Source: Octopus vulgaris (taxonomy: Eukaryota). From it: DNA of 64,000 bases. Of the stretch, positions 43,238 to 44,690 are shown one piece after another. A program made the translations under genes and the position numbers. Location: positions 18,724,001-18,788,000 of the forward strand of contig OX597825.1 of assembly GCA_951406725.2 (NCBI GenBank), given 5' to 3'. The notes under the pieces were generated by a model. That model searched no databases. It was given only the letters and a program-made list of their open reading frames with translations, and was not told where the DNA came from. Position 1 is the first letter of the stretch, and the number at the start of each line of letters is the position of its first letter.

Positions 43238-43312
43238 ATCTATCTATCTATCTATCTATCTATCTATCTATCTATCTATCTATCTATCTATCTATCTATC
43301 TATCTATCTATC
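43238..43312 (+). repeat. (TATC)n microsatellite on the 5' flank of the LINE
   Basis: Directly visible. Confidence 0.97.
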
Positions 43313-43846
43313 GGGCCAGGGCCCATGGACAACTTCCAGAGATCCCTGGCCTGGCAGTGCTACCGAGAAGCGCTACCCGTTCGGGATAAGCTCTACAGAC
43401 ACGGCTCGAGAAACACGGGGCCGACCTGCCCGAGATGCGGTCAGAGCGACGAAACCGTTCTGCACGCACTCGTTCAGTGTCCAACAATTTCCGACCTGTG
43501 GGCTTATGTCGAACAACTGCTGTCACGTGTGGGACGAGTCGGTTTATCAGCTGAGTCTATCGTCAATATTGTCACGCCTCCTTCCTTCAAACGGGAAGGA
43601 AGAGCTATTTTCATCATCCTTGTGGCTATGGCGAAAGAATGTATCTGGTGGACGCGTCTGAAAGGATTGGAGACAAACACTTTCCTCTCTGGTCAATCTC
43701 TCATCAACTTCTTCAAGTACCACTTGAAAAGGAAAGTGAGAGTAGAGAGGCAAGTTTTGTCTAGCGAATGTTTTAAAAAAAGATGGGTGAATGTAGCAAG
43801 AATGGCACGTATGAATGACGAAGCCACCTTGAGCATAGTCCTATGA
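43313..43846 (+). CDS. truncated retrotransposon ORF2 C-terminus (CCHC zinc finger, zf-RVT-like); no genuine start codon
   Basis: ORF 43235..43846, whose N-terminus is microsatellite; ~177 stop-free codons with CxxC-ET-H-C. Confidence 0.75.
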   Translation, partial: GPGPMDNFQRSLAWQCYREALPVRDKLYRHGSRNTGPTCPRCGQSDETVLHALVQCPTISDLWAYVEQLLSRVGRVGLSAESIVNIVTPPSFKREGRAIFIILVAMAKECIWWTRLKGLETNTFLSGQSLINFFKYHLKRKVRVERQVLSSECFKKRWVNVARMARMNDEATLSIVL

Positions 43847-44222
43847 ACCCAGAAATCGAAAACAGAGAGTTGCTTATTTGCAAAAAAAAAAAAAAAGAAA
43901 TATAAAATGTGACTTCATTGACCGAGGTTACCGTGGTCTTTTCCGTAGGCTTTTCTTTCCACGGGTAAACCTCACCTGTCCTCCCCTTTACACTTCATAT
44001 TGACATTTCTGTGATAACGATCCCTATTGATCAATTTTTTTTTCTCTCCCCCTTTTTTTTTAACCCCCTTTTTTTGTCCTCTTTCTCTCCTTTTACGATC
44101 CCTTTTGATCGAAACTCCCCCTTCCTTTTTTTTTTTTTTTTTTTTTTAAACCTTCAAAAGAAAAGCTCTACCTTGTAATTTGTTCTATCTGTGTGCAGCC
44201 CTGTGTGGCTAATAAAGAAACA
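43313..44222 (+). mobile_element. 5'-truncated Tx1/L1-clade non-LTR retrotransposon (ORF2 C-terminus plus 3' UTR)
   Basis: Uninterrupted frame with zf-RVT-type motif W..YREALPVRDKL...CPRCGQSDETVLHALVQC; higher GC than flanks; T-rich 3' UTR; AATAAA at 44211-44216; (TATC)n on both sides. Confidence 0.88.
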
Positions 44223-44690
44223 TATCTATCTATCTATCTATCTATCTATCTATCTATCTATCTATCTATCTATCTATCTATCTATCTATCTATCTATCTA
44301 TCTATCTATCTATCTATCTATCTATCTATCTATCTATCTATCTGTCTGTCTATCTATCTATCTATCTATCTATCTATCTATCTATCTATCTATCTATCTA
44401 TCTATCTATCTATCTATCGATCTATCTATCTATCTATCTATCTATCTATCTATCTATCTATCTATCTATCTATCTATCTTTCTCCCTTGTCTATACTTCC
44501 TTTCAGAAGCTCTCTGTCTCTCACTCGATATATATATATATATATATATATATATATATATAGATAGATAGATAGATAGATAGATAGATAGATAGATAGA
44601 TAGATAGATAGATAGATAGATAGATAGATAGATAAATAGATAGATAGAGAGATAGATTGATAAATAGATAGATACACATCTAGATAGATA
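44223..44690. repeat. (TATC)n, then (TA)n, then opposite-strand (GATA)n
   Basis: Directly visible: (TATC)n 44223-44479 and (GATA)n ~44560-44690. Confidence 0.95.

Follow-up and report, generated by a model that had tools for sequence, protein, structure and literature searches.

A recently active L1-group LINE family of Octopus vulgaris with a strong preference for (TATC)n microsatellites

A stretch of 64,000 nucleotides from the genome of Octopus vulgaris (assembly GCA_951406725.2, contig OX597825.1, positions 18,724,001 to 18,788,000 of the forward strand; referred to as the window) contains a truncated LINE with (TATC)n microsatellite DNA at both of its ends, which raises the question whether the repeat is the target of the insertion, a tail encoded by the element, or a product of the insertion itself. 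A preliminary description of the locus had proposed a recently active Tx1/L1-like LINE whose endonuclease targets such repeats. This proposal was followed up by protein and exact-pattern searches of the whole genome (2.80 Gb in 227 contigs).

The copy in the window and its family

The element comprises 910 bp (43313-44222, + strand) and lies directly between two arrays of the same orientation. The 5' part of the array (43238-43312, +) is a perfect (ATCT)18.8, and its final 2 bp are shared with the element as microhomology: an aligned intact copy has the TC of 43311-12 as well, leaving the 5' junction ambiguous by 2 bp. The 5'-truncated coding part (43313-43846, +) consists of the C-terminal 177 amino acids of ORF2 and the stop codon and carries a zf-RVT cysteine domain (Pfam match with E 1.9e-8). 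It is followed by a 3' UTR of 376 bp with A- and T-tracts (43847-44222, +), which contains a short hairpin predicted by RNA folding (44197-44210, +) and directly thereafter an AATAAA motif (44211-44216, +), and which terminates with AATAAAGAAACA. The 3' part of the array (44223-44483, +) is a (TATC)65.2 with 98% matches, starting in a fixed TATC register. The preliminary description was right in that the ORF2 remnant is open throughout its 177-amino acid frame, with no internal stops, and that the end of the copy (AATAAA...GAAACA) lacks poly(A); its statement that pure (TATC)n adjoins both ends stands for the presence of adjoining arrays in one orientation, but not for their purity, since the 3' array contains two variant interruptions. 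A target-site duplication of this copy, if present, is masked by the pure repeat. Another array, (TA)n/(GATA)n of the opposite orientation and free of any element, is found at 44527-44690, 45 bp past the 3' TATC array, and ARAGORN did not find a tRNA in the window.

The copy belongs to a family (family A) of about 6,000 copies in the genome, as counted from the exact 3' ends: the terminal 26-mer of the LINE occurs 5,939 times, and the 5'-terminal 27-mer 242 times. A protein search with the 177-amino acid remnant yielded 29,670 candidates, of which 150 were scored, all of them 100% identical (150/150); as counted from the matches listed, at least 37 of these 150 lie in a complete open frame of 1,149 codons. 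Most copies are truncated at variable points at their 5' ends, while the 3' end is fixed. A full-length element is now available in the natural copy L070, which consists of 6,078 bp with a 5' UTR of ~220 bp and two ORFs of 681 (ORF1) and 1,145 amino acids (ORF2). The only Pfam matches of ORF2 are an APE endonuclease (EN; Exo_endo_phos), RVT_1 and zf-RVT, without an RNase H domain. ORF1 gave no Pfam match, and a CX2CX4HX4C (CCHC-like) knuckle was found in it by eye; an ORF1 with a CCHC zinc knuckle is a trait of the Tx1 clade. The 18 intact ORF2s diverge by 0.38% on average (range 0.06-0.87%), which argues for recent activity as previously proposed, and the window copy differs from L070 by 0.43% substitutions. 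As judged from these values, the burst of the family is very recent.

Some copies differ from this pattern in their 5' parts. A second variant of ORF1 occurs in L074, and comparisons of L074, L073 and L076 with L070, and of L271-L285, reveal ORF2s which are near-identical (L074 type) or 95% identical (family B) and combined with a different ORF1 and 5' region, apparently reflecting swapping of ORF1 between co-existing subfamilies. Dense clusters of same-strand copies of family A and the related family C are present on contigs C1 (G000:C1, ~60.39-60.46 and 71.61-71.64 Mb) and C2 (~59.68-59.73 and 176.47-176.49 Mb), where the copies have apparently inserted into one another's flanking TATC arrays. 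Beyond this genome, 20 public sequencing runs from 11 studies contain part of the window, and runs under five organism labels hold 44-85% of its words; from this word content, close relatives of the LINE are likely to exist in several species. None of the runs on record is an RNA run, which says nothing either way about expression. Among named proteins, the nearest relative comes from Argonauta hians, with 69% identity over part of the query; the ESM Atlas, a protein-cluster look-up and a second homolog search added no family names besides Argonauta and one coral Tx1.

Repeats and duplications at the insertion sites

Among the 5,939 exact 3' ends, 5,185 run on into ATATC (754 do not) and 3,857 (65%) into A(TATC)3, as compared with only 6 cases of directly following (TATC)3 among the 17,264 exact 29-mer ends of a control SINE with a similar terminal motif. 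Both flanks were examined in a sample of 140 distinct 3' ends, composed of the first 94 of 100 listed 3'-end places, 50 picks from the 150 protein matches, and the window copy; one case with its 5' end outside its locus was removed, leaving 139. Most of the sampled copies lie on contigs 1-4, and some are neighbours of one another or, in a few cases, duplicates (L136/L137/L140; two copies in L143). Copies of ≥400 bp with ≤2% substitutions were regarded as young (n=73), and flanks were scored for (TATC)3 within 40 bp. In the young copies the repeat was found upstream in 62/73 and downstream in 62/73 (85% each), on both sides in 54/73, and (GATA)3 in none of the 73; the background in the window amounts to 15 of 6,227 40-mers with (TATC)3 (0.24%) and 27 with (GATA)3. 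The corresponding values for all 139 copies are 92 upstream, 107 downstream and 79 on both sides, with (GATA)3 at two 3' ends. The pattern is less clear-cut in older and shorter copies, as seen with those below 400 bp (upstream repeat in 14/36). ATATC was absent after the 3' end in only 3 of the 73 young copies, 70 of the 73 young 3' junctions shared one register, and no A-run or poly(A) followed the element end in any of the 139 copies. Full-length copies were assessed from the first 30 of the 242 places with an exact 5' end, 7 of which overlap with the main sample. Their upstream flanks contain (TATC)3 in 26 cases, and together with the 62/73 young copies they do not fit the outcome considered contrary to targeting in the preliminary description, namely TATC confined to the 3' side or random flanks.

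The bias concerns the TATC repeat rather than microsatellites in general, because the much commoner (AT)n runs (116 in the window, as against 10 runs of the AGAT class) rarely flank the copies: they were recorded at 2/73 3' ends and 0/73 5' ends of young copies, where runs of the TATC class account for 60/73 5' and 57/73 3' flanks and those of the CT class for 1/73 on either side. The median length of the flanking arrays is 108 bp at the 5' and 160 bp at the 3' side, degenerate tracts are frequent in them, and upstream arrays start directly after the end of an older element in only 16 of 66 cases; from these three features, the arrays mostly look older than the insertions. Eleven young copies lack an upstream (TATC)3. 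In two of them (L073, L156) the alignment breaks off at a different 5' subfamily, two are junctions with another copy (L016, L154), two have degenerate arrays (L024, L068), one is an insertion at a unique site (L062), and four others remain (L003, L064, L090, L160); part of these exceptions are true off-target insertions. Microhomology between the 5' junctions and the repeat was also considered as evidence, and was set aside because its frequency (at least 2 bases at 9/39 junctions, 12.6% expected) is only weakly above chance. At the 5' junctions of the full-length copies (L161-L190), the TATC array is separated from the conserved start of the element by variable short TC or TCAC extensions, which hint at untemplated bases or an imprecise start of transcription.

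Target-site duplications were recognized as candidates in 14 cases, six of which are ambiguous within repeats, while eight contain non-repeat marker bases and are informative: L062 (14 bp), L157 (13 bp), L127 (12 bp), L128 (16 bp), L087 and L105 (9 bp each), and the partly periodic ones of L043 and L109 (14 bp each). These lengths are similar to those of the duplications made by human L1. All eight begin with TAT straight after the terminal A of the element, and the upstream copy is preceded by T or C. Since the duplications of 9-16 bp start right after the last base of the element, the repeat should be regarded as target DNA and not as a tail. At L087 and L128 the element is directly followed by TATAT, so no TATC tail has been copied there. 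Pure arrays do not allow a tail to be separated from a duplication, and the absence of a tail is therefore judged from eight sites, three of them in young copies. Short TAT(C/A) sites outside of arrays are also used, and the preference for the repeat is accordingly strong, but not absolute.

The same target recurs in two sister families, both found via a search with a distant relative. Family B has an ORF2 identity of 94-95%, and its 3' end runs into TATC in 14 of 15 cases (L281 represents an internal site). Family C has an ORF2 identity of 82%, different terminal bases and 205 exact ends in the genome, and 28 of 30 of its 3' flanks begin with TATC. At its 5' side, TATC adjoins the three full-length copies with a readable junction (a fourth, L288, not counted), while 28 of 30 5' flanks lie mostly beyond the loci and the other two, devoid of TATC, look like alignment breaks in coding sequence. 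The TATC target is common to families A, B, and C. The bB6-bB5 loop region of the endonuclease, implicated in target readout of L1 and Tx1L in the available text of PMC1950540, is near-identical in the three families and different in their relatives of 42-46% identity. Relatives on metagenome contigs showed no TATC flanks; one of them, L212, has an (AT)n run ~700 bp beyond the ORF, which is not clearly at the element end.

Proposed insertion mechanism and alternatives

We regard it as very probable that the insertions are led by the endonuclease and occur into existing (TATC)n arrays in a fixed orientation and register. As deduced from the duplications, the APE endonuclease would set a first nick in the bottom strand at 5'-GATA/R-3' (Y/TATC in the top strand), and the resulting GATA-3' end would prime reverse transcription at the last base of the element. 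The end of the template may be selected via the 3' hairpin and AATAAA region as a candidate signal, perhaps assisted by pairing of a read-through UAUC with the GATA primer over 3-4 nt. An early stop of reverse transcription would lead to the 5' truncations, and a second nick at an offset of 9-16 bp would create the duplications, which stay hidden in pure arrays. The variable 5' truncation, the fixed 3' end and the target-site duplications are the usual footprints of target-primed reverse transcription (TPRT). It is likely, as far as flanks and duplications can tell, that the endonuclease itself sets the target specificity.

Alternatively, the endonuclease might be only loosely specific (for TAT), and the bias might arise at the priming step, where a read-through (UAUC)n RNA pairs with nicked GATA strands. 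Such RNA would indeed include TATC, as most source copies lie upstream of this repeat, the pairing would yield the fixed 3' register, and the off-array insertions have only TAT or TATC in common; yet the TATAT sites of L087 and L128 permit at most 3 nt of pairing, and frequent nicking of GATA strands would still be required. We consider this an unlikely main cause of the bias, even if primer pairing is compatible with targeting led by the endonuclease, and both can contribute at the same time. Still less probable is a creation of the arrays by the element, with an insertion at a short TATC site, a duplication of 13-14 bp seeding repeats on both sides, and their later expansion by slippage. The duplications do open with TATC units, and the 16 of 66 upstream arrays starting at the 3' end of an older copy would agree with this idea, but copies diverged by as little as 0.2-0.5% are already located in arrays that extend over 100-600 bp, contain degenerate tracts of TCTG, TACC, or TCCA, and look older than the insertions, and the 14-bp duplication of L062 has not expanded. 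Finally, the (TATC)n might be an element-encoded 3' tail, with the 5' arrays explained by chance or by survival bias in a microsatellite-rich genome. The near-universal TATC at the 3' end and the abundance of microsatellites would be expected in this case; the frequency of 5' arrays in young copies as compared with the 0.24% background, their constant orientation (always TATC, never GATA), the duplications containing TATC, and the SINE control argue against it. The 5' arrays, the duplications and the control rule out the tail-only and chance readings for all practical purposes, so that their probability is negligible.

Relation to known elements and implications

With two ORFs, an EN-RT-zf layout of ORF2 and no RNase H, the octopus LINE shows the features of the L1 group (L1 plus Tx1), and among PDB entries it matches L1 ORF2p best (E 2.5e-53), which bears out the assignment as a Tx1/L1-like LINE. 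In phmmer searches, ORF2 scored 475 bits against L197 and 400 bits against L195, both flanked by U2, and 319 bits against the Tx1-named coral protein P0103; human L1 ORF2p reached 184 bits in a separate run of this program. In an RT tree (56/96 segments) the five octopod rows (SH-aLRT 100) join the relatives of 42-46% identity (100) beside the group of L195, L197, and P0103; this tree includes none of Tx1L, Kibi, Koshi or L1 as a reference, and its root is not a trusted one. Membership in the Tx1 clade is likely on these sequence comparisons, the tree being one without named references.

Target-specific Tx1 families have been defined by the presence of one sequence type in >20% of flanks (PMC4494074), a value far exceeded by the young copies on each side and by the genome-wide 3' ends. 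Previously known examples of the clade from teleosts are Kibi in (TC)n and Koshi in (TTC)n (Kojima & Fujiwara 2004, as cited in PMC4494074), which like the octopus LINE are APE-type elements with two ORFs inserting into one kind of microsatellite. Compared by description only, they differ in their fish hosts and in their targets, the octopus element using an A-containing tetranucleotide; it behaves like these two elements, yet is kept apart from them because the repeat at its insertions is not (TC)n or (TTC)n. The crocodilian elements Tx1-1/5/6_Crp, Tx1-1_Gav, and Tx1-2/3/5/8_AMi share the preference for tetranucleotide microsatellites, but prefer the pure-pyrimidine targets (TTCC)n or (TTTC)n in vertebrate hosts (PMC4494074, section 15). 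Keno-type Tx1 elements targeting U2 snRNA (PMC4494074), represented here by L195 and L197, have the same EN-RT-zf layout and are the closest compared relatives with a visible target, but exhibit only ~30% identity, form a separate branch, and use U2; moreover, L197 ends in an A-run, which the octopus LINE does not. Among the metagenome APE-RT relatives, U2 snRNA flanks were seen at L195, L197, and L235, a U1 flank at L206, and a U1-like 5' stretch at L196 by eye; all five appear to be Keno-type elements of eukaryotes. Human L1 ORF2p (PDB 8sxt and others) resembles the octopus protein in its EN-RT-cysteine layout, the aligned catalytic residues of the endonuclease and the 11-residue span of the bB6-bB5 loop, despite the low score. 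L1 endonuclease nicks poly(T)-A junctions, according to the available text of PMC1950540, and L1 carries poly(A), as opposed to the presumed GATA/R nick and the lack of poly(A) in octopus. Microsatellites also serve as safe-haven targets for Togen in (TG)n and for some HERO elements (PMC4640811), which use a restriction-like endonuclease (RLE) instead of an APE domain.

The 3' end of the LINE is partly shared with the abundant SINE that served as control above (17,264 exact ends, 6 of them before (TATC)3, and hence not inserted in TATC arrays). This SINE has ~230 bp and is present in the window at 15727-15956 (+), with further 3' ends near 19501 (+) and 36668 (-) and in tandem at 21129-21489. 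The last ~44 bp of SINE and LINE, including the hairpin and AATAAA and lacking poly(A), agree in 36 of 46 aligned bases, and the hairpin is predicted alike for family A, family C and the SINE. The SINE often forms head-to-tail arrays with units of ~180 bp, and about 10 of 33 array-terminal copies have duplications of 13-18 bp at or near the end. Its sites start with GGTAT, GATAT, TATAT or similar sequences, and because these are not TATC, the TATC families are unlikely to drive the SINE directly; a relative of them may do so, making the SINE a possible partner of the Tx1 lineage.

Microsatellite targeting by Tx1 elements is already known, and the new aspects are the target sequence and the host group. 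The literature searched describes neither a LINE targeting TATC or GATA nor targets of cephalopod Tx1 elements; entries in Repbase or Dfam and Kojima & Fujiwara 2004, outside the scope of this search, may list one. Likewise, TATC and GATA are absent from the available main text of PMC4494074, whose Fig. 3 and supplements, also outside this scope, may list such a family, and the available parts of PMC4758252, PMC8967140, PMC3747384, PMC10294476, and PMC8869645 contain nothing on a TATC target. A repeat annotation from 2026 (PMC13282606) assigns 421 insertions in Octopus vulgaris to 13 L1-Tx1 families with recent activity, and its available main text counts the families without describing them by target, the word "target" being absent.

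It is possible, though rather doubtful at present, that octopods harbor their own, still active branch of APE LINEs, which would have acquired microsatellite targeting independently of Kibi and Koshi, with an endonuclease reading GATA/R, a target retained in at least three families, and a poly(A)-free hairpin end captured by a SINE. If this were true, the octopus lineage would be the engine of the SINE, via a relative of looser specificity. In any case, a new target sequence and a new host group are added to the few APE retrotransposons listed as site-specific. The endonuclease is directly accessible to tests because of the hundreds of full-length starts and the intact ORFs, which recommends the family as a candidate system for the study or engineering of insertion specificity. 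For the octopus itself, an insertion rule is now described for one recently active L1-Tx1 lineage, and GATA microsatellite markers used in this animal may be interrupted by polymorphic copies of the LINE.
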